Assembly (NCBI GenBank): GCA_011192005.1
Contig: DUFB01000065.1
Coordinates: 16,843 to 80,842, forward strand
Direction of reading: 5' to 3'
Length of the DNA: 64,000 nt
Origin: Dehalococcoidia bacterium
Lineage (GTDB): Bacteria > Chloroflexota > Dehalococcoidia > Dehalococcoidales > RBG-16-60-22
Positions 1-39,566 of this stretch are shown piece after piece. Below the pieces are notes generated by a model, which did not search any database, was not told where the DNA came from, and saw nothing but the letters and a program-made list of their open reading frames with translations. Each line of letters opens with the position of its first letter. The first letter of the stretch is position 1. The position numbers and the translations under genes are program-made.

Positions 1-15
1 TATAATATTTTATAG

Positions 16-993
16 ATGAAAGAGAGTATAATCAAAAATATCAGGATTTTCGACTTTCAACCCCAACCCGAGGATTTTCTCGGCGAGGTGCTGCGGGGGC
101 TTAAAAAGGTACCCAAGCAGCTTCCCACCAAGTACCTCTACGATGAACGTGGCTCGACTTTATACGAACGTATCTGTACCCTCGACGAGTATTACTTACC
201 GCGCGTAGAAATTGATATTATGGAACGGAACATCGATGAAATAGCCAATCTCCTGGGTAAAAATGTAAGTCTGGTCGAGTACGGCTGCGGCAGCTGCACC
301 AAAACACGTATTCTTCTGGACCATATGCCGGACCTGACTGCCTATATTCCCATAGATATCTCCAGAGAACAACTGCTTCATGAAAGTCAGGAACTCAATA
401 TTGCCTATCCGGAACTAGAAATCCTCCCCGTATGTGCTGACTTTACCGGGGATTTTCAACTGCCCGTACCTGAAAGAAACAGCGAGCGGAATGTGGCCTA
501 TTTCCCCGGTTCATCTATCGGCAATTTCGGGCCGGATTCCGCCCGCAATCTACTGACGCATATCGCCGATTTATGTAAACCAGGTGGAGCCCTGCTTATC
601 AGCATCGACCTGGCCAAAGACCCGGAGATGCTTCACTATGCCTATAACGACCGTGATGGTGTGACCGCCGCTTTCAATTTAAACCTCCTAGAAAGAATTA
701 ACCATGAGCTCGGCGGCGATTTTAACCTATCATGGTTCAGGCACCACGCCTTTTATAATATCGAGAAAGGGCGCGTGGAGATGCATCTGGTTAGTCTGAG
801 GGATCAGGTCGTGCATATTAATAATACAAGGATATCCTTTGCCGAGGGCGAAAGCATCTGGACGGAGAGTTCCTATAAATACGAGCTGCGCGATTTCATG
901 CTGATAGCAGATGACGCCGGTTTTAAGGTCGAAAAGGTATGGATCGACGACAAGGAATGGTTCAGTGTGTTGTACCTGGTGGTGGATGGTTAA
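16..993 (+). CDS. egtD: SAM-dependent L-histidine N-alpha-methyltransferase (EgtD/EanA family)
   Basis: 325-aa ORF with family-typical strings: YLYDERGSTLYERICTLDEYYLPRVE, EYGCGSCTKTRILL, YIPIDIS, FPGSSIGNF. TATAAT lies at 1-6 just upstream. Confidence 0.85.
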   Translation: MKESIIKNIRIFDFQPQPEDFLGEVLRGLKKVPKQLPTKYLYDERGSTLYERICTLDEYYLPRVEIDIMERNIDEIANLLGKNVSLVEYGCGSCTKTRILLDHMPDLTAYIPIDISREQLLHESQELNIAYPELEILPVCADFTGDFQLPVPERNSERNVAYFPGSSIGNFGPDSARNLLTHIADLCKPGGALLISIDLAKDPEMLHYAYNDRDGVTAAFNLNLLERINHELGGDFNLSWFRHHAFYNIEKGRVEMHLVSLRDQVVHINNTRISFAEGESIWTESSYKYELRDFMLIADDAGFKVEKVWIDDKEWFSVLYLVVDG

Positions 994-1011
994 AGAACCT
1001 GAAGTAAAATC

Positions 1012-4000
1012 CTATTTACAGGGAATCAGCCTTACCGTATCTTTCTCTTCCAGTACCTGCTTCAGGGCAGCTATCGTGTCGTCGATATCCTTTTTTGTAG
1101 TATTGTGAGACAGCGAGAAGCGCACCGAACAGTGGGCTTCTTCCTCCGTCCTGCCCATAGCCAGGAGTACATGGGTAGGCTCCGGAGAGCCCGATTTACA
1201 TGCCGACCCCGAGGAAAGGGCTATCCCGTGCCTGTCCATGGCGATGACAATCGATTCACCCCGGAGTTCCGGCAATGTCATGTTGAGAGTATTGGGCAAT
1301 CTACTGACGGGATGTCCGTTCAGTCTGGCATAAGGCACCAGCTTCTTGATTCCCTCCTCAAGTCTATCCCGCAGGGCCTCTATCCGTCTGCCCTTCTGCC
1401 AGGTCTGCCCTGCCAGCTCGGCGGCTTTTCCCAGTCCGACGATAGACGGAACGTTCTCCGTGCCCGCCCTGAAACCGCTCTCCTGCTGTCCACCATGGAT
1501 GAGGGGTTCTATCTCAACCCCTTTCCTGATATATAAGGCTCCCACGCCTTTCGGTGCTCCGAATTTGTGCCCGGATATGCTCAGAAGGTCCACGCCGAGT
1601 TCTTCCACATCGACCTTAATTTTGCCGATAGCCTGGACGGCATCGGTGTGAAACAGGATACCCTTTTCGTGAGCAATATCACACAACTCGCGGATGGGCA
1701 AGATGGTTCCCACTTCATTATTCGCCAGCATGATAGAGACAAGAATCGTTTCATCGGAAATGGCCGCTCGCAGTTTTTCCGACTCCAGGCAACCGAATCC
1801 GTCAACCTCCAGATAGGTAATCCTGAAACCTGATTTTTCCAGAAATTTAGCAGTATTCAGCACTGCGGGATGCTCAATGGCGGTGGTGATAATATGATTA
1901 CCTTTATCCCGACGGGCATTGGCTATACCCACCAGAGCCAGGTTGTCAGCTTCCGAACCGCCGCCCGTAAAGACAATCCGCCGCGGCGAGGTATTGATAA
2001 GCGAGGCTACCTGTCGTCGCGCTTTTTCCACAGCCACACGGGCGTCTCTGCCAGCAGCATGGATACTGGAAGGATTACCATATTCAGCCTCTAGGTACGG
2101 CAGCATCGCCTCCCGGGCGGCGTCAGCCACCGGAGTGGTGGCGTTGTTATCCAGATAGATTTGCTTTCGTGGTTCAGTACGCGCCCGCGTTAAAGATGCT
2201 TTCTTTTTTCTTTTCATTACAGGTTTTACGCCCTCTTCGCCTTTACCCGAGGCTACCTTCACCACATCACAGAGAAGGGCTTTATAGACGGGAAAACCGG
2301 ATATCTCGTCGAAATTATCCAGGTCAGTAAGTTCATTGACATTCCTCTCCCGCCAGGCTTTCGGTCCTACCGGTGTACCGCCTCCCATGGAGCACTCAAT
2401 CGTTCCCTTCATAATATCATCAGTCACCAATGCCCTGAAAGGGACACTACCCCGAGGGGTCACGACATCCACCAGGTCGCCACTCACGATATGCCTTTCG
2501 GCCGCATCTACACGGTTAATCTCGACAGCAGGTTCCGGGTATTCTGTCGCCAGGCCCTCTATGCCGTGATGCTGGGATCGAAAATCATTAGGGGTGCGGG
2601 CTCCAGAGTTAAAGACAAGGGGATATTCTCTGGCGAGTGCAGGACTGCCGAGAGGACCTTCTCTGGGTTCAATGTATCTGGGTAATGGTTCGTAACCATA
2701 TTCCTCCAGGGTTGTTGACCATATCTCAAACTTACCCGTAGGAGTTTCAAAACCAGGCTTTCCGTCCTGCCGCAGTCCTCCCTTTTGCCACTTTTTATAT
2801 TCCAGCATGGGGACGGGAATTCTCACCCAGCCTCCCTTTTCTCTGATATCCTCGGGAGTAAAGCCGGAGCCATCCAGAGCCAGACGAATCATTTCATCCT
2901 CGGATTGAGGAAACAAGTGCCCGTAGCCAAGTTTCTCGGCTAACCCGGCCATAATCAAATAGTCATTACGCGCTTCTCCCAGCGGCTCGATAATCCGCTC
3001 GCGTAATCGCAGAATCGGTCCGTAGACCATATAAGACTCATTCTCGAACATCGTCGTTGCCGGCAGAACGATATCGGCATAAGCAGCGTCGGCGGTTAAC
3101 TGGCGGTCGATACAGGCCAGGTAGTCCAGCTTTTCCAGTGTCTCCCGCCAGATAGCTGTCTGCGGCCAGGAAGTCAGCAAGGAAGCTCCGTGGATGATTA
3201 GAGCGCGCATCGAATAGGGCTCTCCCTTGAGGACGGAATTCACCAGGCCGATAGCGTGAGACTCGCCACGGTAATTGCTGTAGACAGGAAAGAGCTCTCT
3301 TCCGATAGCGATATCAAGATTCGGGTTTCTTTGATTACAGGCACGATTTATGGGAAAAGTGCTGTTGAGCATGTTAAGCCCGATACCGCCCGCCACATCG
3401 AGGTGCCCCGCCAGACTGAACAAAGTATACACAGCGCGGGCGGCCTGTACGCCGCCGTTGGAGAATTCCAGGCCAGTATACAGCAACGGACAGGCACCAT
3501 CGGCACTGGCGATACGGCGAGCCAGATCGTGTATGGTCTCGGCAGGTACACCGGTTATCGTCTCTACCACTTCAGGACTAAAATGCTGGGTATAAGCTCT
3601 GAGTTCGGCAAATCCGTGGCACCAGTTTTCGGCAAAGTCTTCATCATAAAGGTCTTCTTCAATCAGCACCTCAATCAGGCTCAAGGCCAGTGCGCCGTCG
3701 GTTCCGGGACGGATGGGAACCCACTGGCCACCGGTGCGTACGACTGTTTCCGTACGACGCGGGTCAATAACAACAATATCGGCACCTCTGCCTGCCGCTG
3801 TTTCCAGACGCTGCATATCAACCGGAGGAGAATCTGTGGCGGGATTGGTACCCCAGACGATAATCATTTCAGCGTTTTCAACATCGGAAAACATGTCAAC
3901 GCCCGACCGCCCCATGGTCACCCCCGGAGCGATAACATGCAGGGAAACATAACAAAGGGCGCCTACGCCGGTGGTATTCGGGGAACCGAAGGGGAAGAGG

Positions 4001-4395
4001 ACGTTAGATGCCGATGAAACGGTGATTCCCGCGGGTTGAAACATATCGCAGAGAGACAGCTCCTGGGCGCCGCGCCCGGTGTAAATACCCACCGCTTCGG
4101 GACCCGACTCATTCTTTATTTTATTCATATTTTCAATGATATTATCGTAAGCCTGATCCCAGGTAATATTCTCAAAGTCGTACGAGCCCTTGGGGCCGAC
4201 ACGCCGTATCGGGGACTTCAACCGGTGGTCGCTATAGACAATCTCCACGGCATGTTCGCCCAATCGACATATCGTCCCCAGCGAATGATCAGGGTCGGGA
4301 CGTATGCCAACCATTCTATTCTTATCAAGGGCTACTTCTACCCAGCACCCGGCGGGACATATACCGCATATACCTTTCTGCCAGACCATAGTCAA
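1012..4395 (-). CDS. Fusion protein: N-terminal Mo/W-bis-MGD oxidoreductase-like module plus C-terminal NifS/IscS-type cysteine desulfurase (MES-like ergothioneine synthase candidate)
   Basis: Uninterrupted 1127-aa ORF. N-terminus has a C-x2-C-x3-C-x25-C 4Fe-4S motif (CGICPAGCW...ICRLG) followed by molybdopterin oxidoreductase-like sequence. A K/R-rich linker (MKRKKKASLTRARTEPRK) maps to about nt 2160-2230. The C-terminal ~385 aa carry the NifS PLP-lysine motif SGHKFGAPKGVGALY and catalytic-Cys motif SSGSACKSG. Confidence 0.8.
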   Translation of the reverse strand: MTMVWQKGICGICPAGCWVEVALDKNRMVGIRPDPDHSLGTICRLGEHAVEIVYSDHRLKSPIRRVGPKGSYDFENITWDQAYDNIIENMNKIKNESGPEAVGIYTGRGAQELSLCDMFQPAGITVSSASNVLFPFGSPNTTGVGALCYVSLHVIAPGVTMGRSGVDMFSDVENAEMIIVWGTNPATDSPPVDMQRLETAAGRGADIVVIDPRRTETVVRTGGQWVPIRPGTDGALALSLIEVLIEEDLYDEDFAENWCHGFAELRAYTQHFSPEVVETITGVPAETIHDLARRIASADGACPLLYTGLEFSNGGVQAARAVYTLFSLAGHLDVAGGIGLNMLNSTFPINRACNQRNPNLDIAIGRELFPVYSNYRGESHAIGLVNSVLKGEPYSMRALIIHGASLLTSWPQTAIWRETLEKLDYLACIDRQLTADAAYADIVLPATTMFENESYMVYGPILRLRERIIEPLGEARNDYLIMAGLAEKLGYGHLFPQSEDEMIRLALDGSGFTPEDIREKGGWVRIPVPMLEYKKWQKGGLRQDGKPGFETPTGKFEIWSTTLEEYGYEPLPRYIEPREGPLGSPALAREYPLVFNSGARTPNDFRSQHHGIEGLATEYPEPAVEINRVDAAERHIVSGDLVDVVTPRGSVPFRALVTDDIMKGTIECSMGGGTPVGPKAWRERNVNELTDLDNFDEISGFPVYKALLCDVVKVASGKGEEGVKPVMKRKKKASLTRARTEPRKQIYLDNNATTPVADAAREAMLPYLEAEYGNPSSIHAAGRDARVAVEKARRQVASLINTSPRRIVFTGGGSEADNLALVGIANARRDKGNHIITTAIEHPAVLNTAKFLEKSGFRITYLEVDGFGCLESEKLRAAISDETILVSIMLANNEVGTILPIRELCDIAHEKGILFHTDAVQAIGKIKVDVEELGVDLLSISGHKFGAPKGVGALYIRKGVEIEPLIHGGQQESGFRAGTENVPSIVGLGKAAELAGQTWQKGRRIEALRDRLEEGIKKLVPYARLNGHPVSRLPNTLNMTLPELRGESIVIAMDRHGIALSSGSACKSGSPEPTHVLLAMGRTEEEAHCSVRFSLSHNTTKKDIDDTIAALKQVLEEKDTVRLIPCK

Positions 4396-4452
4396 TCCTT
4401 TTTATAAGTCTCTAACCAATATTGTATAAACACCAATATTAAAAATCCAGTA

Positions 4453-4480
4453 TTGACAAACTGGCATGAATTCATAGAAT
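4453..4480 (+). promoter_or_regulatory. sigma70-like promoter for the 4499 gene
   Basis: TTGACA (4453-4458), 16-nt spacer, TAGAAT (4475-4480). RBS GGGAGG at 4487-4492 precedes the ATG at 4499. Confidence 0.5.
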
Positions 4481-4498
4481 TGGATTGGGAGGTAACGG

Positions 4499-4975
4499 AT
4501 GCCACAACTCGTTAAGGGCGGTAAATATATCTACGGTTTGTCTAAAGTAAGTAGAACCGGGGTGATTATCATTCCTCCGGAAGCCATGACGGAATATAAA
4601 TTCAGGGATGGCGATAGGGTAATATTACTCAGCGGAAGCCGTAAATCCGGTGGTTTTGGAGTTACCAAATCGAGCATACTACAAAAAACAAACCTGGCAA
4701 GACTCATACAGGACATCCCCGGTTTAGCCAGTTACCAAATACCGGAAAACGTAACTATCGAAGCCAAAGGCAGGTGGCTGTGCTGGTCTACGATTAAGAC
4801 AGGTGGCTATCTGCAACTCACAACGGAAACACTATCAAAATATAATATTGCAGTCGGTGATTTTTTAACAATCGGTCGGGGTAGTTATCTGGCCATTAGC
4901 TTTATAGCACGGGGCGTTATCCTGGAAGAAGCTTTAAGACACCCTGACCTGGAGATATTTGAGGTTCATAACTAA
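4499..4975 (+). CDS. Hypothetical protein with two AbrB/SpoVT/MazE-like swapped-hairpin motifs
   Basis: 158-aa ORF with good promoter and RBS. Two segments look like AbrB-type motifs: GVIIIPPEAMTEYKFRDGDRVILL and GYLQLTTETLSKYNIAVGDFLTIGRG. The fold assignment is by eye only. Confidence 0.4.
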   Translation: MPQLVKGGKYIYGLSKVSRTGVIIIPPEAMTEYKFRDGDRVILLSGSRKSGGFGVTKSSILQKTNLARLIQDIPGLASYQIPENVTIEAKGRWLCWSTIKTGGYLQLTTETLSKYNIAVGDFLTIGRGSYLAISFIARGVILEEALRHPDLEIFEVHN

Positions 4976-5062
4976 TGTCAGATAGCCTGTTCAGGTAAGT
5001 AGCATAAAACAATATACAAAACTTTATTCCAATAATAGTTTATCATCACATATGAGCATCAC

Positions 5063-5091
5063 TTGACATTTGGCAAACCAGATGGTAGAAA
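5063..5091 (+). promoter_or_regulatory. sigma70-like promoter upstream of the PAS kinase gene
   Basis: TTGACA (5063-5068), 17-nt spacer, TAGAAA (5086-5091). Confidence 0.4.
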
Positions 5092-5159
5092 TATGACTAT
5101 AGAGCAAATAACCGCCAATTTATTGCTGTGGTTGGGTCGGTAATTTCAGGTAAAAAGAG

Positions 5160-8144
5160 ATGAACGACTCACACAAAACCAAGAAACAGCTCATCAATGA
5201 GCTGTCGCAGATACGCCAGGAACTAGCGGCCGTATCAACTTCGAAGAATACCTCTCAAAAAGTCACTCCGGAGTCAATAGAACCTGATAATATCTTTTAC
5301 AAGGCTTTTCTTTCCAGTCCTGACATGTTTATTATTGCCGATCCTACCAACGGCACATATGTAGAAGTGAATGATAGCTTTGTGAAAAACACCGGTTATA
5401 GCCGCGAGGAACTAATCGGGCACAGTGTTGGCGAACTCAACCTGTGGGTTCATCAGGAAGAACGTGATAAAATGAGCCGTCTTCTTACCGAACATGGCAA
5501 ACTAACCAATGAAGAATTCAGTTTCCGGATGAAATCAGGGGAGATACGCCAGTGGCTATGCGCTGCTGAGACAGTAAATATGGGCGGCGCGGAGCGGATG
5601 ATAGCGGTAGCCACGGATATTACCGAACGTAAACAAGTAGAGGATGCACTACGAACAAGTGAAGAAGAATTCCGCACCCTGTTTGAAACGATGGCTCAAG
5701 GTGTAGTTTATCAGGAAAAGACCGGTGAAGTGATATCCATGAATCCGGCAGCAGAAAGTATCCTTGGTATGAAATTGGAGAAACTAAAAAATCCTAGGAT
5801 AATCAATACAAACTTAAAAACTATACGCGAAGATGGTTCTATATATCCCGCAGAAGAGCATCCCACCATGGTTTCCTTAAAAACGGGCAAACCAGTAAAA
5901 GATGCGATTATGGGAATTTATAATACGGAAGAAGATAACTACAAATGGATAATTATCAACACCGTTCCACAATTCAGACCGGGTGAAGACGAACCATATC
6001 GAGTATTCGTTACATTTAACGATATCACCGAGCGAAAGCGTATGGAAGAAAACCTCAGATACCACGCTGACCTCATGCAAAACGTATCTGATGCCATTGT
6101 ATCCACTGACCTTGAACACAAAATTATTAGCTGGAACAGAGCTGCCGAGTTAAAATATGGCTGGCGGGAAGATGAGGTCATCGGCAGGAAAATGGTGGAT
6201 ATCCTAAAGCCAGAATATCCGAATAAGAAAATTGAAGACATAATGAAAACTCTAAGAAAGGACGGTATCTGGCGGGGTGAGGCCATCCACGAAACAAAAG
6301 GGGGAGAGAAGTTAAACGTATTAGTATCTACCTCCCTGATAAAGGATGAAGAAGGTGATAACAAAGGAGCCGTAACCTTTTTTACTGACATCACGGAACA
6401 GAAACAGGAGGAAGAAAGGCACCGGACAATTCTTCGTACGACTCTTGACGGCGTCTGGACGGTGGATTTGAAGGGGAAATTCATAGAAGTAAATGATGCT
6501 TACTGCAATATGGTGGGATATACGCGGGAAGAACTGCAAAATATGTCTATAATGGAAATAGAAGCCGTAGAAACACCTGAGGATATACTTCAACGGATCG
6601 ATAAAATTATCACAGAAGGCGGCGACCGTTTCGAGACTAAACACAAGCGTAAAGACGGCCGGATAATTGATGTTGATATCAGTACCAACTATCTCGATAT
6701 AGGCGAAGGACAGCTTTCTGTTTTCGTACGTGATATTACCGAACGCAAGGCGACTGAAAAGGCGTTAAGAGAATCAGAGGAAAGGTTTTCCAAAGCCTTC
6801 CGTTCCAGCCCGGACAGGGTGGTTATCTCAACCCTCAATGACGGGAAAGTCGTTGACGTTAATGACAGCTACCTCCGCTATACGGGATATAGACGTGATG
6901 ATGTGATAGGCCATACCATGATTGAACTCGGTTCCTGGGTAAACCCCGAGCAACGCATTAAAATAATTCAGAATTTAAAAAAACACGGAAAAGTTGAGAA
7001 TGAGGAAGTTGAGTTACGTAACAAATCAGGAGAGATACGAAATTCAATTTTTTCAGCCGAGCTAATCAACATCGACGGCGAACAATGCATGATATCCATA
7101 GCTACTGACATCACCGAACGAAAACACGCCGAAGAGGCATTGCGGGAGAGCGAGGAAAAATTTTCACGGGCTTTTCATGCCAGTTCTAATCTGGTGAGTA
7201 TTACCCGCATTAAGGACCATGTTATTCTTGATATTAACGAAGCTTACGCCCAACTCTCCGGTTACAGCCGCGAGGAGCTCATCGGGCGTTCCACGCGCGA
7301 TCTGAAACTCTGGGCAGATCCCGAACAAAGAAAAAAAGCCTCCACGCAACTTGACCAGAACGGCAAGGTTCGTCACATGGAGGTTAAACTACAAGCAAAG
7401 TCTGGTGATATTCGGACTATTCTCCTATCCACAGATATGGTATATCTGAAGGGTGAACCCTGTCTCCTTACCACAGGCGTTGATGTCACCGAACGTAAGG
7501 AGGTTGAAGAAGCACTAAAGGAAAATGAGGAAAGATACCGGCTGATTGCGGACAATGCTAATGATCTTATCTCGCGTATTCAGATGATTCCTGAAATAAG
7601 TACAGACTACGTGAGTCCATCATGTCTGCGTATCACAGGCTACAGGCAGGAGGATTTTTATAAAGACCGGAATCTAGGCCTTCAGATGATTCATCCAGAT
7701 GATCAGGATTTATTCCTGAAACACATAAGATCGGGGAATAAAAACCAGCAACCACTTATAGTACGACTGGTACGTAAAGATGGCCAGGTAATCTGGATAG
7801 AACAAACCCACACGGCCATCTCTAACGATAAAGGTGAAACCGTCGCTATGCATCTCATCGCCCGTGATATCACCGAGCGTAAGCGCGCCGAAGAGGCACT
7901 GAGAGAAAGTGAAGTTCAGTTAAAGGGTATTCTAAAAGCCGCTCCTATCGGCATAGCCCTGATTCAGGACCGCATACCTGTATGGGTAAACGACCATTTT
8001 TGCACCATGACGGGTTATTCAGAACAAGAACTGGTGGGAAAAAACTCCAGAAAACTGTATACATCATATGAAGAATACCTGAGAGTAAATGAACTAAAAA
8101 ACCGGGCCATAGAATTTTCTGGTAAAGGTGAAGCTGAAACCTAA
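5160..8144 (+). CDS. Multi-PAS sensor protein (N-terminal part of a sensor histidine kinase, ended by an in-frame TAA)
   Basis: 994-aa ORF. Seven PAS-like modules each end in D(I/V)TE(R/Q)K followed by a coiled linker such as EEALRESEE. Confidence 0.8.
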   Translation: MNDSHKTKKQLINELSQIRQELAAVSTSKNTSQKVTPESIEPDNIFYKAFLSSPDMFIIADPTNGTYVEVNDSFVKNTGYSREELIGHSVGELNLWVHQEERDKMSRLLTEHGKLTNEEFSFRMKSGEIRQWLCAAETVNMGGAERMIAVATDITERKQVEDALRTSEEEFRTLFETMAQGVVYQEKTGEVISMNPAAESILGMKLEKLKNPRIINTNLKTIREDGSIYPAEEHPTMVSLKTGKPVKDAIMGIYNTEEDNYKWIIINTVPQFRPGEDEPYRVFVTFNDITERKRMEENLRYHADLMQNVSDAIVSTDLEHKIISWNRAAELKYGWREDEVIGRKMVDILKPEYPNKKIEDIMKTLRKDGIWRGEAIHETKGGEKLNVLVSTSLIKDEEGDNKGAVTFFTDITEQKQEEERHRTILRTTLDGVWTVDLKGKFIEVNDAYCNMVGYTREELQNMSIMEIEAVETPEDILQRIDKIITEGGDRFETKHKRKDGRIIDVDISTNYLDIGEGQLSVFVRDITERKATEKALRESEERFSKAFRSSPDRVVISTLNDGKVVDVNDSYLRYTGYRRDDVIGHTMIELGSWVNPEQRIKIIQNLKKHGKVENEEVELRNKSGEIRNSIFSAELINIDGEQCMISIATDITERKHAEEALRESEEKFSRAFHASSNLVSITRIKDHVILDINEAYAQLSGYSREELIGRSTRDLKLWADPEQRKKASTQLDQNGKVRHMEVKLQAKSGDIRTILLSTDMVYLKGEPCLLTTGVDVTERKEVEEALKENEERYRLIADNANDLISRIQMIPEISTDYVSPSCLRITGYRQEDFYKDRNLGLQMIHPDDQDLFLKHIRSGNKNQQPLIVRLVRKDGQVIWIEQTHTAISNDKGETVAMHLIARDITERKRAEEALRESEVQLKGILKAAPIGIALIQDRIPVWVNDHFCTMTGYSEQELVGKNSRKLYTSYEEYLRVNELKNRAIEFSGKGEAET

Positions 8145-8177
8145 TTTGTCTGTAAAAACGGTGATATTAGAGATATT

Positions 8178-9047
8178 TTGATAGTCTCCACACCGCTGGA
8201 TCCCGATAACCAATCAGCCGGAACAATCGCAACCATGATGGATATCACCGAGCGGAAGAAAGCTGAAGAACATGAGAGGGAAGCCAAGAATTTAAGAGAA
8301 CTGGATAGATTGAGAACCGAGTTACTGGCGAATGTATCCCATGAACTGCGTACTCCGCTGGCCAGCATAAAGGGGTTTACAACCGTTCTTACTGACTACG
8401 ATAATAAACTCACGCCCGAGGAAAAAAGGGAATATCTGGAAATTATTGACCATAATACCGACAGGCTTTCGGAATTGATCGAACAATTGCTGGTCATTTC
8501 CCGCTTAGGCTCGGGCATGCTTACTATCGATAGGTCACCCAGTGATATCAAAACTCTATGTGAGGAAGTGATATCCGAAGCGAAAATCAGGTCACCGGAA
8601 TTCAATTTTATACATGATCTACCGGCACGATTGCCTAAAGTATACATTGACACCAAACGTATCAGGCAGGTCCTGGACAATCTTATCGATAACGCCGTGA
8701 AGCATTCATTTCCAGGTACCGAGATATCGATCACCGCCAGCAGGAAAAATAATGAAATAGTGGTAACGGTGACTGATGAAGGAACCGGCATCTCCCGGAA
8801 GGATAGGCCTTATATATTCGACCGCATGTTTCATACCCAACGTAAGCATAAATCGGGAGCAACGGGAGCCGGACTGGGATTATCCATCTGCAAAGGGCTT
8901 ATAGAAGCACATCAAGGCAGAATCTGGATAGAGAGTGAAGAAGGTAAAGGAACCAGATGCTTTTTTACCTTACCGACATATAACAACCGGGGTGTTCGTC
9001 ATGGTAAAAAGGAAAAGGGGGAATACCATTCTGTGCATCGAGGATGA
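8178..9047 (+). CDS. Histidine kinase core (HisKA + HATPase_c), in the same frame as 5160-8144
   Basis: Phospho-acceptor box SHELRTPLASIKG. N/G boxes DNLIDNAVKHS, DEGTGIS, GAGLGLSICKG. The reading frame is open from 8145 and in phase with the upstream ORF. Confidence 0.85.
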   Translation: MIVSTPLDPDNQSAGTIATMMDITERKKAEEHEREAKNLRELDRLRTELLANVSHELRTPLASIKGFTTVLTDYDNKLTPEEKREYLEIIDHNTDRLSELIEQLLVISRLGSGMLTIDRSPSDIKTLCEEVISEAKIRSPEFNFIHDLPARLPKVYIDTKRIRQVLDNLIDNAVKHSFPGTEISITASRKNNEIVVTVTDEGTGISRKDRPYIFDRMFHTQRKHKSGATGAGLGLSICKGLIEAHQGRIWIESEEGKGTRCFFTLPTYNNRGVRHGKKEKGEYHSVHRG

Positions 9048-14977: not shown

Positions 14978-15745
14978 CTACCTTACCTCGATTCGGTCTA
15001 CCCATTTAATCCACGTACCGCCAAAGTCGCCTTCTACGACCAAACGCAGCGGGAAGCCGTGCTCCACCGGAAGTACCTCGCCATTGACGGTATGCGCCAA
15101 GAAAACACCATCGTGCAGAATATCCTCGATTGAAAACTTTTGCTCATAGTAGCCATCGGCCGAATAGAAGACCACAACTTCAGCCCCGGGCTTGATGCCG
15201 GCTTCCTTTAACAGCGTTTTTACCGGTATGCCCATCCACTCGGCGTTATCAGCGAAGAAAGCGGGGCATATAAGAAGAACCACGCGGGTGACGGTGGGAT
15301 ATCCAAGGAGAGTTTCATAAGTAAGGGCGAGTTCGTTTTCCACTAATCCGTCAATGATGAGGCGGTATTGTGTTATATCCACTTCAGGAGCCGAGCCGGT
15401 GATATGCAAGTGTTCCGTGGATGTTATGGGGAGCTTCGAATTATCAACTTCCGCAGGGTCTCTATTGATGAGGTTGGAGAGATCATCCGCCCGGTCATTA
15501 CCAGGTGTCCGGCCGGGTATCTGGTTATCAGCTTCAATCTCATCCTGCGTTTGCCCTGCCAACGGCGACGGCGGAGTCGCCGAATCCTGTTGAATGGACA
15601 CGCAGGAAGAAACAGCTATAACCGAGCCCGAAGCGACCATTAAAAAGACGAAAAGCAAACCCAAGTGGTTCTTAGGCAATACAGCGCCCTCCCAAAGAAT
15701 AGGATTATTTACTCTACCTATATTTTTAACCTTAACGCATATCAT
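14978..15745 (-). CDS. Secreted/lipoprotein molybdopterin-dependent oxidoreductase domain protein (sulfite-oxidase/MsrP-fold)
   Basis: Lipobox-like AVSSC. C-terminal ADGYYEQKF...NGEVLPVEHGFPLRLVVEGDFGGTWIKWVDRIEV is typical of the Oxidored_molyb domain. The start codon is uncertain. Confidence 0.6.
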   Translation of the reverse strand: MICVKVKNIGRVNNPILWEGAVLPKNHLGLLFVFLMVASGSVIAVSSCVSIQQDSATPPSPLAGQTQDEIEADNQIPGRTPGNDRADDLSNLINRDPAEVDNSKLPITSTEHLHITGSAPEVDITQYRLIIDGLVENELALTYETLLGYPTVTRVVLLICPAFFADNAEWMGIPVKTLLKEAGIKPGAEVVVFYSADGYYEQKFSIEDILHDGVFLAHTVNGEVLPVEHGFPLRLVVEGDFGGTWIKWVDRIEVR

Positions 15746-33562: not shown

Positions 33563-35173
33563 ATGAAGAAATATCTGATTCCAGCTTTGGCGGTTATTTT
33601 ATTAGCCAGTATGATTCTCAGCAGTTGCGGTGAGCCTGAACCTACAACAACACAACCGACAACAGCACCGACATCTACACCTACCACCACACCTACCACT
33701 GGACCCGTCTACGGCGGTAAATTTACCATGGTACGCAATACAGGCATCACCGAGGTTGGTGCTCCCATGGACCTGCAGGGTGGCTACGGCGGTGTGACTT
33801 ATCCTCTCTGGTGCCCTGTCGTTGAGACTTTATACATTGTTGATGCCGCAGACCGGATCGTGCCCGTACTGGCCGAGTCCGTGGAAGTAGCATCGGACGG
33901 ACTGTCTGTCGTGTTCAAACTGAGACAGGGAGTCAAGTTCCACGATGGTACGGACTTCAATGCTGAAGCGGTGAAAATTAACCTAGAAACTGTAATTGCC
34001 GCCGAGGTTCCTGGTTCTACCCCCCTGAAGAGCATTGAATCTTTCGATATTATTGATGACCATACCCTAAAAATTAACCTGAAAAACTTTGACGCTACCT
34101 TTCTGATGAGCCTGGCCCAATCGGGTGTTGGTGTCATGATATCCCCCGCTGCCCTGACCAAAGAGACGACGCCGGAAAATGCCGGAAAAGATCACCTGGT
34201 GGGCACCGGGCCTTTCCTGTTTGATAGCTGGGCTCTAGACCAGTACATCATCATGAAAAAGAATCCCAACTACTGGCAGGAAGGCAGACCTTACCTCGAT
34301 GAGATTGAAATCCGCAATATTACGGACTACACCATTTCAATCATGGCTTTCAAGGCCGGGGAAGTGGACATGGTTGAAAGTATTGACCCTGCTCAATATA
34401 ACGAATTGAAGGAACAGGGTTATACCGTCGGTATTCCAGAAGGCCTGGCTTTCGTCTTTAGCTTCCGAACCGCCAATGCCGACCCCGCCTCACCTTTCTC
34501 TGATAAAAAGGTACGGGAAGCCCTGTGGTATTCTGTTGACAGGGAAAGCCTGGTTTTCGGTCTGGGTAAAGGCACCTATAATGTGGCGAACCAATTAGCC
34601 GCGCCGCAGCAGGGGTGGTATATTGAGGATTACCCCGCCCGACCATATGATCCAGATAAGGCCATGGAGTTGCTGGCTGATGCTGGCTTTGAAGGTGGTT
34701 TTAAGACCATTTTACACGGTGATATCCGCGGACGTCAGGATGACCTGGTCGCTCTCCAGACTTACTTCGGTGCGATTGGCATAGAGTGCGAGCTGGATAT
34801 TGCCGACGTTGCTCGATCGAGTACCTTCGGCACCGAGGGCTTCGATGGCATTTTCCAGAGCGGTTTCCCCAACTGGTCTTCCTTCTCCAGCTGGATGAAT
34901 GTCTGGCTTAGCCCTACAGCGACCTACCCCACCATGAAGTTCCCAGATAACTGGACAGAAGACTGGCAGGCTGTCAAGACTGAGCCAGATTACGATAAAC
35001 GGATGGCTCAAATGAAGGCCCTCCTTAAAGTAGTCTATGATGAAGCCCTGGTAATTCCCTGGATGTGGGATGCTCCACGCTACTGTATAAACTCCAAAGT
35101 CCATGATCTGATGTGGGATGCCGTGGACATCAATGGCTACTTCGATCCAGTCAATGTCTGGAAAGAGAAATAA
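33563..35173 (+). CDS. ABC transporter substrate-binding lipoprotein, family 5 (peptide/nickel/opine type)
   Basis: Lipobox LSSCG, Thr/Pro-rich tether TTTQPTTAPTSTPTTTPTTGP, then family-5 SBP-like sequence (GGKFTM..., NPNYWQEGRPYLDEIE). Confidence 0.85.
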   Translation: MKKYLIPALAVILLASMILSSCGEPEPTTTQPTTAPTSTPTTTPTTGPVYGGKFTMVRNTGITEVGAPMDLQGGYGGVTYPLWCPVVETLYIVDAADRIVPVLAESVEVASDGLSVVFKLRQGVKFHDGTDFNAEAVKINLETVIAAEVPGSTPLKSIESFDIIDDHTLKINLKNFDATFLMSLAQSGVGVMISPAALTKETTPENAGKDHLVGTGPFLFDSWALDQYIIMKKNPNYWQEGRPYLDEIEIRNITDYTISIMAFKAGEVDMVESIDPAQYNELKEQGYTVGIPEGLAFVFSFRTANADPASPFSDKKVREALWYSVDRESLVFGLGKGTYNVANQLAAPQQGWYIEDYPARPYDPDKAMELLADAGFEGGFKTILHGDIRGRQDDLVALQTYFGAIGIECELDIADVARSSTFGTEGFDGIFQSGFPNWSSFSSWMNVWLSPTATYPTMKFPDNWTEDWQAVKTEPDYDKRMAQMKALLKVVYDEALVIPWMWDAPRYCINSKVHDLMWDAVDINGYFDPVNVWKEK

Positions 35174-35218
35174 ACCATAAATATGCGGTTATGGTAATTA
35201 CGTGATGAAAGGGAGGTT

Positions 35219-35269
35219 CTCCGTCCCCGGGGAGAAAAAACAACCGGGGGCGGAGTCCTTTCTTTTCTT
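35219..35269 (+). terminator. Strong intrinsic terminator between the SBP and permease genes
   Basis: 12-bp stem CTCCGTCCCCGG (35219-35230) / CCGGGGGCGGAG (35244-35255, one G-U pair), followed by TCCTTTCTTTTCTT. Confidence 0.7.
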
Positions 35270-35686
35270 ACGGTGCATATTGCACTGGTTAGAAAAACCG
35301 GGGTGGAAAGAGGCCATATCCATGACTTAATATTTACCGGTCTGCCATGGATGGCGCAAGGTATAACCGAATATAAATCATCCTGAAAACGATCCGGCAA
35401 ATCAGACAGAATAAAAAAACTGCCACGTGCACCGAAACTAGATTTGGCAGGATAAATATGGTACAAATTACTTGGAGATTATTTTACATATCGAGTTTTT
35501 TGTCCCTTAAACGTAACAACTCCTCAACCCTAAAATGACCTGGCTGTAATACAAAAAACAAAGAAACACTAAAGACATTAACAAATTAGAACAGGGTAAA
35601 TGCTATCCTGAACGCTAAATAGAATAAGTTAGCGGAAACAAGAGACTTCCTTGGTAGTCAAATAATCCCTCCGTGGAGGATATGAA

Positions 35687-36643
35687 ATGACAGCGTATAT
35701 CATACGCCGTTTATTGTTAGGAGTGATTATCCTCTTGCTGGTTACCCTGCTGGTCTTTCTGGCGATGCGTCTGTTACCAGGTGACCCGCTGATGATTTTC
35801 GTTTCTCAGTTCCAGACTGAATCCTTCACCCCTGAGCAGATAGAAGAGCTGCGCCGTGAATTTGGCTTGGATAGATCTCTTCCCATGCAGTATATCAACT
35901 GGCTCGGTGATATATTGCGAGGAGATATGGGTAAATCCATTATTATGGGTCAGGACGTGGGGTATTTGATATCCACCAGGCTGCCGGTAACGGTTTATTT
36001 CGGTGTCATGTCTTTTGTCGTGAGTGCATTTTTAGGCGTCATTTTCGGCGTAATCTGTGCTCTAAGAAGGGGTAAATGGCTTGATTCGGTAGTTACTGTT
36101 CTGGCTAATATCGGCATTACGGTGCCTGCTTTCTGGATTGGAATATTATTGATGTATCTATTCTCGCTGACGTTACACTGGTTACCTACCAGCGGTTATG
36201 TAGCTCCCACAGAGAATCTGGCACAAAGTCTACGTGCAGCAATCATGCCTGTTATCTGCCTTTCTCTATTTTCGGTGGCTGCACTGACCCGTCAGACCCG
36301 CTCTGCCATGCTTGAGGTTGTCAGCCAGGATTATATCCGGACCGCCTGGGCTAAGGGTTTACGTGAGCGGGTAATAGTTCTCCGGCATACCATAAAGAAT
36401 GCCATGATACCCGTTATTACCATCCTGGGCTTACAGGTTGGGTTGATCTTCGGGGGATCAGTCCTGATAGAAACCGTCTTCAATATTCCGGGAATGGGAC
36501 GGCTATTAGCCAATTCCCTATTTTCTCATGATTATCAGATAGTCCAGGCCGGGACACTGGTCATTGCGGTGGTAGTGGTGCTTTCCAACCTGATAGTCGA
36601 TATTTCCTACGGCTGGTTTGATCCACGCATAAGGTACGGTTAA
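35687..36643 (+). CDS. ABC transporter permease (DppB/OppB-like)
   Basis: 318 aa, six TM helices. N-terminal MTAYIIRRLL and the DYIRTAWAKGL EAA-loop motif. Confidence 0.9.
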   Translation: MTAYIIRRLLLGVIILLLVTLLVFLAMRLLPGDPLMIFVSQFQTESFTPEQIEELRREFGLDRSLPMQYINWLGDILRGDMGKSIIMGQDVGYLISTRLPVTVYFGVMSFVVSAFLGVIFGVICALRRGKWLDSVVTVLANIGITVPAFWIGILLMYLFSLTLHWLPTSGYVAPTENLAQSLRAAIMPVICLSLFSVAALTRQTRSAMLEVVSQDYIRTAWAKGLRERVIVLRHTIKNAMIPVITILGLQVGLIFGGSVLIETVFNIPGMGRLLANSLFSHDYQIVQAGTLVIAVVVVLSNLIVDISYGWFDPRIRYG

Positions 36644-36654
36644 GGAGTGCGTGC

Positions 36655-37560
36655 ATGCAGAATAATGTGACCAATTCAGTGGAACCGACGGCATGGTCTG
36701 AAGTCGCACCGGCCCAGAGCGAGTTCCGCCGGGTGATAAGGGTATTTTTCAGCCGCAAGATTGCGGTAGTCGGTTTGGTACTGATTGTCTTATTGGTTAT
36801 AACGGCCATATTTGCTCCATGGCTGGCACCCTATCCTCCTAATGACATCGACATGGCTAACACTCTGGCCAAACCCAGCGGTGACCACTGGCTGGGAACT
36901 GATAATCTGGGAAGAGATGTTCTGAGCCGCATTATTTATGGCGCCCGTACTTCTTTAATAATCGCTGTCGGCGCGACCGCGATGTCCGTCGTACTGGGCG
37001 AGATTTTAGGTCTGATTGCCGCTTATTTTGGCGGAATCGTTTTTCAAATTATAATGCGTTTCATCGATGCATTAATGGCAGTTCCGATGCTTCTAGTTGC
37101 TCTGATTATGGCTTCCCTGCTGGGTGGCGGGGTGAAAAACGTAATTCTGGCTCTTGGCGTCGGTATGCTGTCCGTCCACGCACGAATGATGTGCGCTCAG
37201 GCGCTCAGCGTTAAGCAGAATGATTATATTCTGGCCGCCAGGTCGATGGGAATGGGCGATATGCGCATGATGATTCAGGAAATTGTGCCCAATGCTTTCC
37301 CGGCTCTGGTGGTCGTCGCGACCGTAGGTCTGGGGGCAGTTATTCTGGCAGAAGCCGGCCTGAGCTTTCTGGGCGTGGGTGTAATGCCTCCTTATCCGGC
37401 CTGGGGCAAGATGATCAGCGACGGTTACAAATATATACTCTCCAACCCTGCATTGGCATTTTCTCCCGGCATAGCCATAATGCTGGTTGTCTTTGGCTTT
37501 AATATGATGGGGGACGGGCTCCGTGATGCCTTGGATCCCAGGTTAAGAGGAGTTGTATAA
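36655..37560 (+). CDS. ABC transporter permease (DppC/OppC-like)
   Basis: 301 aa. IFAPWLAPYPPN, HWLGTDNLGRDVLSRIIYGAR, YILAARSMGM. Confidence 0.9.
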   Translation: MQNNVTNSVEPTAWSEVAPAQSEFRRVIRVFFSRKIAVVGLVLIVLLVITAIFAPWLAPYPPNDIDMANTLAKPSGDHWLGTDNLGRDVLSRIIYGARTSLIIAVGATAMSVVLGEILGLIAAYFGGIVFQIIMRFIDALMAVPMLLVALIMASLLGGGVKNVILALGVGMLSVHARMMCAQALSVKQNDYILAARSMGMGDMRMMIQEIVPNAFPALVVVATVGLGAVILAEAGLSFLGVGVMPPYPAWGKMISDGYKYILSNPALAFSPGIAIMLVVFGFNMMGDGLRDALDPRLRGVV

Positions 37561-37593
37561 AGTAGAGGACCATAAGAATAGCGAGAAGTAGAT

Positions 37594-38586
37594 ATGTCTG
37601 TTCTTTTAGATGTTAAGAACCTGAGAACCCATTTTCATACGCACCGCGGGTTGGTTAAAGCTGTGGATGGGGTCTCTTTCCATATTAATGAGAAAGAGAT
37701 AGTAGGGCTGGTTGGAGAAAGCGGGTGCGGGAAATCGGTAAGCATGCTTTCCGTGATGCAACTAATAGCGATCCCACCGGGGAAGATAGTAAGTGGTAGC
37801 GCCATGTTTGATGGCCATGATTTATTAAAATATAAACCCAAAGGCGATGAAATGAGGGCGATACGTGGCGCCAAGATAGCCATGATATTTCAGGAACCGA
37901 TGACATCGCTTAATCCGGTGTTAACTATTGCCCGTCAGGTTACCGAAACGCTGGAACTGCACCTTAAAATGGACACTCAGACTGCCAGAAAAAGGGCAGT
38001 TGAGCTACTCAAACTGGTCGGTATCCCTGAGGCTGAAAGCCGCCTTGATAACTACCCGCACCAGTTTAGTGGCGGCATGAGACAGAGAGTGATGATCGCC
38101 ATCGCCCTCTCATGCAATCCCAAAATACTCATCGCCGATGAGCCGACCACGGCAGTAGATGTTACCACACAGGCTCAACTGCTGGAGCTGATGCAGGAAA
38201 TGGTCAACCGGTTTAATACTTCACTTGTCATCGTAACGCATAATCTCGGTGTCGTGGCCCGCTACGCCGATAGAATATACGTAATGTATGCCGGCCGTAT
38301 CGTAGAATCGGGCCTTTCGGAAGATATATTCTTAAGACCTCTTCATCCTTATACCATCGGACTCCTTAAATCTGTTCCACAATTAGGGCAAACGAAAAGC
38401 GACAGGGAACTGGTCCCTATCTCCGGTCTGCCGCCAAATCTGATTGATATGCCCCAGAACTGCGCATTTTTACCGAGATGTTCTTATCATAAAGAGAGGT
38501 GCCGGCTCGAACCCTGGCCTGAGCTTCATGCTGTAGGTGCACAGCATTACGTATCCTGTTATGTTGATACCCGGGAGACATCATGA
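37594..38586 (+). CDS. ABC transporter ATP-binding protein (DppD/OppD-like)
   Basis: GESGCGKS Walker A, FSGGMRQR signature, [11 protein letters not shown] Walker B. C-terminal Cys-rich oligopeptide-type extension. Confidence 0.9.
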
Positions 38587-39566
38587 ACGCCCATCAAAAT
38601 AACAATCTAATTGAAATAAAAAACCTGAAAATGTACTTTCCTATCACCAAAGGATTGTTACGTCGTAAGGTCGGTGACGTTAAGGCTGTAGATGACATCA
38701 GTTTTGATATCAAGCAAAATGAAACCCTCGGCCTAGTAGGAGAAAGCGGATGCGGTAAGACCACGACCGGACGGTGTATCTTACGTCTGTATCAACCCAC
38801 GTCAGGAAGTATAGTGTTTAATGGAACCGATATTTCCTCTATACCTGAGAAGCAGGTAAGGCCTCTCCGACGTCACATGGGCGCTATTTTCCAGGACCCT
38901 TACGGTTCTCTTAACCCAAGACAAAGCGCACGCACTATTGCCGGAATGCCGCTGATAGTTCATCATATGATAGACAAAAAAGATTTAGATGATAAAGTAG
39001 CCGAGCTCTTCAATCTTGTGGGACTGGATTCAAGTATGATGGATCGTGTCCCTCATGAATTCAGTGGTGGCCAACGGCAACGTCTGGGAATTGCCCGTGC
39101 TCTGGCCTGTAACCCATCGCTAATAGTCTGTGATGAGCCAATTTCAGCCCTTGATGTTTCTATACAAGCTCAAATAATCAACTTACTTGAAAAGCTCCAG
39201 AAGAGCCTGGGACTTACCTATCTCTTCATTGCGCATGACCTTTCCGTGGTACAGCATATCAGCGACCGCGTAGCGGTTATGTATCTGGGCCGTATCGTAG
39301 AGATAGCGAATTCAAAGGAACTCTACCAGAGTCCACTGCATCCGTATACCAAAGCACTGCTGTCGGCAGTACCCGTGCCAAATCCCGTAAGAGAAAGAGA
39401 GCGCGTACGAATTGTCTTGAAAGGAGAGGTTCCCAGCCCCGCCCATCCACCGACTGGTTGCCACTTTCATCCGCGGTGCTCTATTGCATCTGCCGAATGT
39501 GAAGAATTCATACCACCTCTGAATACTATCAGCGGCACCCATCAGGTATCTTGTCTGAAGGTATGA
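38583..39566 (+). CDS. ABC transporter ATP-binding protein (DppF/OppF-like)
   Basis: [32 protein letters not shown] overlap with the upstream gene. Confidence 0.9.

Follow-up and report, generated by a model that had tools for sequence, protein, structure and literature searches.

An egtD gene convergent with a metallopterin-cysteine desulfurase fusion gene in a Dehalococcoidia genome: a probable oxygen-independent ergothioneine locus

Can an uncultured Dehalococcoidia bacterium make the antioxidant ergothioneine without oxygen? The question is raised by a stretch of 64,000 nucleotides (nt) of a metagenome-assembled genome (MAG; assembly GCA_011192005.1, contig DUFB01000065.1, positions 16,843 to 80,842 of the forward strand), which is called the window in the following. 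At its left end, a gene of the egtD type, for a histidine methyltransferase, is convergent with a long open reading frame (ORF) in which a molybdopterin oxidoreductase-like module is joined to a NifS-like cysteine desulfurase. An earlier note on this DNA had read the pair as the two-gene pathway that employs a metallopterin-dependent ergothioneine synthase (MES). Our analysis supports this reading: every feature of an MES that can be recognised at the sequence level was found in the window protein, and we infer its activity from them. The locus very probably encodes a complete O2-independent MES route to ergothioneine.

The gene egtD (positions 16-993, plus strand) encodes a predicted S-adenosylmethionine (SAM)-dependent L-histidine N-alpha-trimethyltransferase of 325 amino acids (aa), the product of which is trimethylhistidine (TMH, hercynine). 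It ends with TAA at 991-993, and the MES gene on the minus strand ends with TAG (read as CTA at 1012-1014). As read from the sequence, the convergent stop codons are separated by a spacer of 18 nt (994-1011), which has no room for a terminator-like hairpin, and matches to promoter or terminator consensus sequences around both genes are at chance level only. The longest ORF of the MES gene covers 1012-4395 on the minus strand and starts with TTG at 4395 (1127 aa). However, an AAGGA box is located 6 nt 5' of an ATG at 4389, and GenBank as well as three other assemblies use a product of 1125 aa. Therefore, the MES gene most likely spans 1012-4389 (1125 aa). All residue numbers given here refer to the ORF of 1127 aa.

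The order of Pfam domains on this uninterrupted ORF, which the earlier note had already described as a fusion, reveals two modules. The N-terminal one (aa 1-712, nt 2260-4389) is a predicted bis-molybdopterin guanine dinucleotide (bis-MGD) module for a molybdenum or tungsten (Mo/W) pterin centre and matches Molybdop_Fe4S4 (aa 4-55), Molybdopterin (aa 58-488, 6e-36) and Molydop_binding (aa 599-706, 2e-17). It begins with the cluster motif C10-x2-C13-x3-C17-x25-C43, the putative Fe4S4 site. An interdomain linker follows (aa 713-744, nt 2164-2259), including the lysine- and arginine-rich stretch KPVMKRKKKASLTRARTEPRK (aa 724-744, nt 2164-2226). The C-terminal part (aa 745-1127, nt 1015-2163) is a NifS-like class-V cysteine desulfurase module dependent on pyridoxal phosphate (PLP), with a match to Aminotran_5 at aa 746-1105 (1e-83). 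Its PLP lysine is Lys944 within SGHKFGAPKG (codon at 1564-1566) and its persulfide cysteine is Cys1066 within SSGSACKSG (codon at 1198-1200). The cluster motif, both desulfurase motifs and the basic linker thus all lie where they had been described before. In an alignment of 120 homologues, the linker varies in length and sequence and the flanks on both sides are conserved.

The first description of MES, from Caldithrix abyssi (Beliaeva and Seebeck, JACS Au 2022, PMC9516567), is of a pterin module resembling acetylene hydratase that is joined to a working cysteine desulfurase; the earlier note had rendered this work accurately. In that work four homologues, CaMES, hvMES, EaMES and AbMES, made ergothioneine from TMH in E. 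coli (PMC9516567); CaMES corresponds to UniProt A0A7V4WV16. The reference sequences used here were machine-read by optical character recognition (OCR) from the supporting information PDF of PMC9516567, with errors, and the identities are therefore lower bounds. On this basis the window MES is collinear over its full length with CaMES (59% identity), hvMES (62%), EaMES (55%) and AbMES (54%). When the modules are aligned separately with the four validated enzymes, the N-terminal module reaches 707-877 bits (56-64% identity) and the C-terminal module 339-453 bits (52-62% identity).

The agreement extends to the residues on which catalysis depends in CaMES, where ergothioneine production was lost with the exchanges C153S, K952A, C1074S and C1135S and fell to half with C1097S (PMC9516567). 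The Fe4S4 cysteines C10, C13, C17 and C43 correspond to CaMES C14, C17, C21 and C48, and are invariant in all four validated enzymes and in 120 of 120 homologues. The same holds for C148 (GVGALCYVS, codon at 3952-3954), the predicted Mo/W ligand, which is equivalent to CaMES C153 and also aligns with the tungsten-ligand cysteine of acetylene hydratase. In the desulfurase module, K944 (CaMES K952) is invariant in all 120 homologues, C1066 is the counterpart of the persulfide cysteine C1074, and C1089 that of C1097, being Cys in 115 of the 120. The penultimate residue C1126 (codon at 1018-1020, tail ...RLIPCK) equals CaMES C1135; the tail reads IPCK here and IPCR in CaMES, and ends in PCK or PCR in every one of the 120 homologues. 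Hence, all nine MES-defining residues are kept in the window protein, and eight of them are invariant across the 120 close homologues.

The place of the protein in its family was examined by an exhaustive search with HMMER, which covered 1.84 billion representatives at 50% identity. The top of the list is a fused protein of 1139 aa (P0123; 1007 bits, 62% identity to the window MES), which in turn shares 66-67% identity with CaMES and EaMES. Below it, identity falls off gradually from 53% to about 30% among unfused proteins of about 700-735 aa. With about 60% identity to the tested enzymes, the window MES ranks as a mainstream member of the family. It shares with the four tested enzymes the two-module single polypeptide of about 1130 aa, the variable linker and the co-encoded EgtD. 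It differs from them by a shorter and K/R-rich linker, by its host, a Dehalococcoidia MAG, and by the convergent EgtD gene at a distance of 18 nt.

The methyltransferase assignment is equally firm at the level of curated models. The EgtD product scores 385.3 bits against the NCBIfam egtD equivalog TIGR03438, above the cutoff of 290.9, and matches PF10017 (Methyltransf_33) at 5e-107; the EasF model gives 173.3 bits, below its cutoff of 205.55. The earlier identification of an EgtD-type gene 18 nt from the fusion stop is thereby confirmed, with exact coordinates. The structures 4uy6 and 4pim of Mycolicibacterium smegmatis EgtD are matched at 3.5e-49, and the identity with this enzyme (PDB 4PIO, 4UY6) is 36% over 315 aligned residues. 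At the substrate-contact positions of this enzyme, Y39, Y56, N166, Y206, T213, F216, M252, E282 and S284 are all kept, and the sole change, a conservative one, is F47 to Y. These contact residues are likewise conserved in 34 MES-linked EgtDs. In contrast to the M. smegmatis enzyme, the window EgtD is partnered with MES and not with the aerobic EgtB/EgtC or the rhodanese EanB. The routes via EgtB (a sulfoxide synthase) and EanB (rhodanese-type) have the end product and the first step, catalysed by EgtD or EanA, in common with the MES route, whereas their sulfur-transfer enzymes are unrelated to MES. Of the 56 non-overlapping window ORFs with 90 aa or more, 51 were scanned with Pfam, and none of these gave a match to an FGE-sulfatase, glutamine amidotransferase or rhodanese domain; no EgtB-like protein with FGE-sulfatase and DinB domains was found in the window, in line with the earlier statement that no egtB/egtC or eanB-like gene is visible there. 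A second desulfurase was also not found in the window.

By orthology, the pathway would start with the transfer of three methyl groups from three SAM to L-histidine by EgtD, yielding TMH, and MES would then insert sulfur at the imidazole C2 of TMH. For this, the PLP domain with Lys944 would desulfurate L-cysteine to alanine and load a persulfide on Cys1066, from which the sulfur would move, without leaving the polypeptide, to Cys1126 in the C-terminal tail. Cys1126 would pass it on to the Mo or W bis-MGD centre, with Cys148 as ligand and the Fe4S4 cluster adjoining, so as to form a metal-sulfido species. After attack on this sulfido group by the deprotonated TMH imidazole, ergothioneine would leave, and the next persulfide would re-sulfurise the reduced metal. 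In sum, TMH and cysteine would be converted to ergothioneine and alanine without O2. Experiments with CaMES in E. coli established which residues are required and that the sulfur transfer is obligatorily intramolecular, and the C-terminal part of CaMES was found to act as a cysteine desulfurase by itself; how the metal centre reacts is a tentative proposal of the authors even for CaMES (PMC9516567). The mechanism may be extended to the window protein by way of orthology.

Several points weigh against this assignment. The identity of the metal as Mo or W and the binding of bis-MGD are deduced from domain matches only, and ergothioneine synthesis by the protein and the organism is likewise deduced from orthology. 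The identities to the tested enzymes depend on OCR sequences, and hvMES reads H at the column of the PLP lysine ('SGKHF'), presumably a transposition of SGHKF in the machine reading. No pterin-synthesis or Mo/W-uptake genes were found in the 64-kb window. The output of the tested homologues in E. coli spans about 1000-fold, from 0.4 to 420 uM (PMC9516567), and therefore the level of activity is not predictable for the window MES. A full-length AlphaFold2 model, built on a 30-sequence alignment, has a mean predicted local distance difference test (pLDDT) score of 53.8 and a predicted template modelling (pTM) score of 0.39 and is too poor for the geometry of a swinging tail. With regard to the cofactor, a second pterin-dependent protein is encoded at 14978-15745 (minus strand, 255 aa), with a sulfite-oxidase-type molybdopterin domain (Oxidored_molyb, 4e-36). 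This protein does not come near the cutoffs for SoxC, SorA or MsrP; its presence suggests that the organism makes the pterin cofactor.

It might be asked if the same sulfur relay acts on another acceptor or another chalcogen, either another heterocycle or selenium, which would lead to selenoneine. In this case the linkage to EgtD would reflect a related betaine product and not ergothioneine. We regard this as improbable. It is true that heterocycle sulfurisation by Mo enzymes is perhaps more widespread, as stated in the discovery paper (PMC9516567), that 44 of 79 related loci are without EgtD within 10 kb, and that the C-terminal domain also matches selenocysteine lyase (NF040779, 122.6 bits; structure 3gzc, 1.7e-62), although far below its matches to NifS/IscS. 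However, the window enzyme lies within the group of the four ergothioneine makers, with 54-62% identity and all catalytic residues, and its EgtD, the gene of which is the immediate neighbour, retains the residues that contact histidine, E282 and M252 among them. In addition, no selenium-metabolism gene was seen in the window.

An ergothioneine synthase is also to be distinguished from an ordinary redox or hydratase enzyme of the DMSO (dimethyl sulfoxide) reductase family, such as a formate dehydrogenase, a polysulfide or thiosulfate reductase or an acetylene hydratase. There the NifS part would only mature the Fe-S cluster or sulfurate the cofactor once, comparable to the molybdenum cofactor (Moco) sulfurase or FdhD, and such desulfurase-dependent sulfuration of cofactors is a known theme. 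Partial matches to models of these enzymes exist, but all are below cutoff on the fusion ORF: NCBIfam Fdh-alpha gives 279.5 bits (cutoff 666.25), PhsA 245.7 (694) and DmsA 204.8 (777.7). Among solved structures, the N-terminal module matches acetylene hydratase (2e7z) best with 206 bits, followed by PsrA/PhsA (2vpw, 190 bits), DMSO reductases (about 170 bits) and formate dehydrogenases (around 150 and at most 158 bits). All this is far from the 707-877 bits against the validated MES N-modules, and the N-terminal domain groups with MES and acetylene hydratase. It does not cluster with formate or other dehydrogenases, as it would have done under a condition that the earlier note had named for a refutation of its reading.

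The relation to acetylene hydratase (PDB 2E7Z) consists in the Fe4S4 cysteine motif, the aligned Cys metal ligand and the bis-MGD fold family; for the N-terminal module of CaMES, 27% identity was reported (PMC9516567). In contrast, HMMER aligns only about 600 of the about 710 residues of the N-module, and the catalytic Asp13 of acetylene hydratase, beside the second cluster cysteine, is replaced by Pro14 in the window protein and by Pro or Ser in all MES. Acetylene hydratase is moreover a stand-alone protein of about 730 aa without desulfurase and catalyses C-O hydration, not C-S bond formation. As to the desulfurase part, NifS/IscS structures (PDB 9wep, 4eb5, 1p3w) align end to end at 5e-112 to 2e-93, the former being the best match among cysteine desulfurases in the PDB, with PLP lysine and persulfide-loop cysteine in common. 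With the NifS model TIGR03402 the module reaches 523.4 bits, just under the cutoff of 530.75; it is NifS-like and not a nitrogenase-maturation NifS. Different from NifS/IscS, the MES desulfurase is fused to its acceptor enzyme, carries the relay cysteine of the ...PCK/PCR tail and delivers sulfur intramolecularly to the pterin metal centre and not to scaffold proteins. In CaMES, a sulfur-exchange experiment with the K952A variant showed that the desulfurase serves turnover and not maturation (PMC9516567). Given also that the closest unfused relative (P0125, 53% identity) lacks the MES-specific cysteine Cys116 described below and lies in an unrelated neighbourhood, we consider an ordinary enzyme of this family very improbable.

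Finally, the fusion itself could have been produced by assembly or a frameshift. The protein of the window EgtD is present on nine contigs. In three loci whose samples differ, two of them in ENA assemblies and one in GCA_034431235.1, positions 1-5200 of the window recur at 99.92-99.94% identity with zero gaps. The junction (nt 2116-2253) is inside this gap-free stretch, and the linker is identical in the three independent assemblies. The fusion is therefore real, and not two genes joined by a sequencing error, as the earlier note had allowed for. Protein clusters that have the same full-length architecture and at least 71% identity number more than 120, and among the best 80 related loci, drawn from 302 species genomes, 68 have an intact fusion and another six are cut only by contig ends. 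That the ORF is an artefact or a decaying gene without functional fusion is thus excluded for practical purposes, even though the source is a MAG and 5 of the 80 related loci have C-terminally truncated ORFs: the window ORF is intact, with all catalytic residues present. These five truncations (L009, L042, L050, L060 and L076) lie within the desulfurase module; in L076, from a long-read MAG, both MES and EgtD are fragmented. Errors of sequencing, which long-read MAGs are expected to contain, may account for them, or the genes may be genuine pseudogenes.

How common is such a locus? Each GTDB species was represented by one genome in a scan with two peptides specific to MES, and hits were confirmed by tblastn. 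At least 302 species genomes have a confirmed MES relative, distributed over Chloroflexota, KSB1, Gemmatimonadota, Calditrichia, Acidobacteriota, Aminicenantes, Fidelibacterota and others. In 31 of the best 80 loci, EgtD is convergent just downstream of MES with gaps of mostly 3-133 nt, and 30 of these 31 are in genomes labelled Chloroflexota. In four more loci EgtD is on the same strand as MES, and in 44 there is none within 10 kb. Within Dehalococcoidales, the closed genome CP070842 (L004, which is one locus with L015) shows the convergent layout too, with an identical gap of 18 nt. Table S1 of the discovery paper comprises about 85 species, including four MES homologues of Dehalococcoidia or Dehalococcoidales (PMC9516567). 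The family, the mechanism proposal, the pairing with EgtD and the presence in Dehalococcoidia were thus all published in 2022, and the locus is an ordinary, under-annotated example. With four homologues tested already, about 85 species tabulated and about 60% identity, the value that the earlier note had attached to a second divergent example was overstated, and the window MES can be regarded as neither rare nor divergent. Intact MES fusions were also observed in L077 (a MAG labelled Thiobacillus sp.), L084 and other Gemmatimonadota loci. The lineages named by these labels do not usually count as strict anaerobes, which does not fit well with the claim of the discovery paper that only anaerobes have MES (PMC9516567).

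The chief practical value of our results lies in annotation. GenBank names the window EgtD (HEY97487.1, from a Dehalococcoidia MAG) L-histidine N(alpha)-methyltransferase, and the protein identical to the window MES (HEY97488.1) bears the label 'aminotransferase class V-fold PLP-dependent enzyme'. At JGI, MES homologues are called 'cysteine desulfurase NifS', and a model for MES is missing from NCBIfam. With such generic names and without a model, a putative ergothioneine synthase goes unrecognised in at least 302 species genomes. If the genes are expressed, an obligately anaerobic, uncultured lineage of Dehalococcoidia would make ergothioneine without oxygen, which would add to the evidence for widespread ergothioneine in the microbiota of anoxic subsurface and sediment. 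The locus itself opens no new question; useful to specialists are one cysteine of the N-terminal module and two neighbouring gene families of related loci.

The cysteine in question is Cys116 in the motif ELSLC-DMF (codon at 4048-4050), an MES-specific residue. All four validated MES, P0123 and 119 of the 120 close homologues have Cys at this position, and each of the 16 further relatives in the alignments, 14 unfused proteins and two long ones without the C-terminal MES residues, lacks it. An equivalent is not mentioned in the main text of PMC9516567. Cys116 may be a final relay or active-site residue and is put forward as a candidate. Other cysteines are specific to the clade of the window protein. 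Cys668 (GTIECSMGGG, codon at 2392-2394) is Cys in all 120 homologues (71% identity or more) and Ala in all four tested MES; C259, C353, C428 and C905 are further extra conserved positions, mostly Cys. Unfused pterin proteins with a length of 724-735 aa (P0125, P0126, P0127 and P0131; L085:2431-4638) share 43-53% identity with the N-module of MES and keep the cluster and metal-ligand cysteines, with Cys116 absent. A split MES, consisting of an unfused N-module and a separate NifS, was considered for P0125. Its gene lies among genes for acyl-CoA dehydrogenase, a cupin and an Fe-ADH, and no EgtD or NifS was found nearby; as it also lacks Cys116, P0125 was treated as a different enzyme.

The first of the two neighbour families is a flavoprotein disulfide reductase. 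In the window's strain, a reductase of 455 aa (L001:8502-9869, minus strand) is encoded divergently from egtD, about 130 nt upstream of the place that corresponds to position 16 and hence outside the window. It remains below all curated cutoffs, with 564 bits for a dihydrolipoyl dehydrogenase model, its best match (cutoff 592), and 388 for mycothione reductase (cutoff 501). Orthologues with 65-88% identity adjoin EgtD in L005, L006, L007, L012 and L076, in two layouts, so that the link between EgtD and the reductase comes from six loci only. The cluster of reductase neighbours is heterogeneous: the copy in L044 is a true MerA-type enzyme and only 37% identical to the reductase of the window strain.

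The second family is a DinB-fold protein of 175 aa, which lies beside or overlaps MES or EgtD in 12 Chloroflexota loci (L015:14594-15121, L008:7908-8435, L076:10987-11535 and nine further ones). It scores 184-186 bits, above the cutoff of 170, against the model of the Rv0443-type mycothiol S-transferase (MST), and matches the M. tuberculosis MST structures 8f5v/8fx9 at 7e-34. The gene either overlaps the MES start, as in L008, or is divergent from EgtD, as in L015, and in L076 the MST-like gene, the reductase gene and EgtD follow one another in this order on one strand. Homologues of the two families were not found in the 64-kb window, and the MST-like and reductase genes are leads from related loci and not properties of the window. 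Mycothiol is not known to be made outside Actinobacteria; therefore, the MST-like protein and the reductase could be specific for ergothioneine. The ergothioneine thiol transferase was listed as 'Unknown' in a review of 2024 (PMC10950700). It is a tentative and rather doubtful idea that EgtD and MES form the core of a wider ergothioneine-based thiol system in Dehalococcoidia. If true, the MST-like protein could be the first S-transferase specific for ergothioneine, and the flavoprotein the first enzyme to reduce its oxidised form.

The rest of the window is mostly of housekeeping character, with genes for GlnRS, GluRS, NuoE/F/G-like proteins, DnaB, ribosomal protein L9, PlsX, thioredoxin, a thioredoxin reductase-like protein, NusA and IF-2, and an Opp/Dpp-type ABC (ATP-binding cassette) transporter at 33563-39566. 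An Rfam scan of the whole window gave nothing, including no Moco riboswitch, and no tRNAs were found in it. Divergent from MES at a distance of 110 nt, a protein of 158 aa is encoded at 4499-4975 (plus strand). Its sole match is a weak, sub-threshold one to the SpoVT/AbrB type (MazE_antitoxin, E = 0.002), and the gene is kept at the same position in L005 with 76% identity; the product may be a small DNA-binding regulator. Further on, a large PAS-rich sensor histidine kinase (5160-9047, plus strand) is split by an in-frame TAA at 8142-8144. The 99.9%-identical strain of L001 has CAA at the equivalent of 8142-8144 and a nonsense codon of its own, GAA to TAA, at the equivalent of 5514. The two stops are independent nonsense polymorphisms of one gene.

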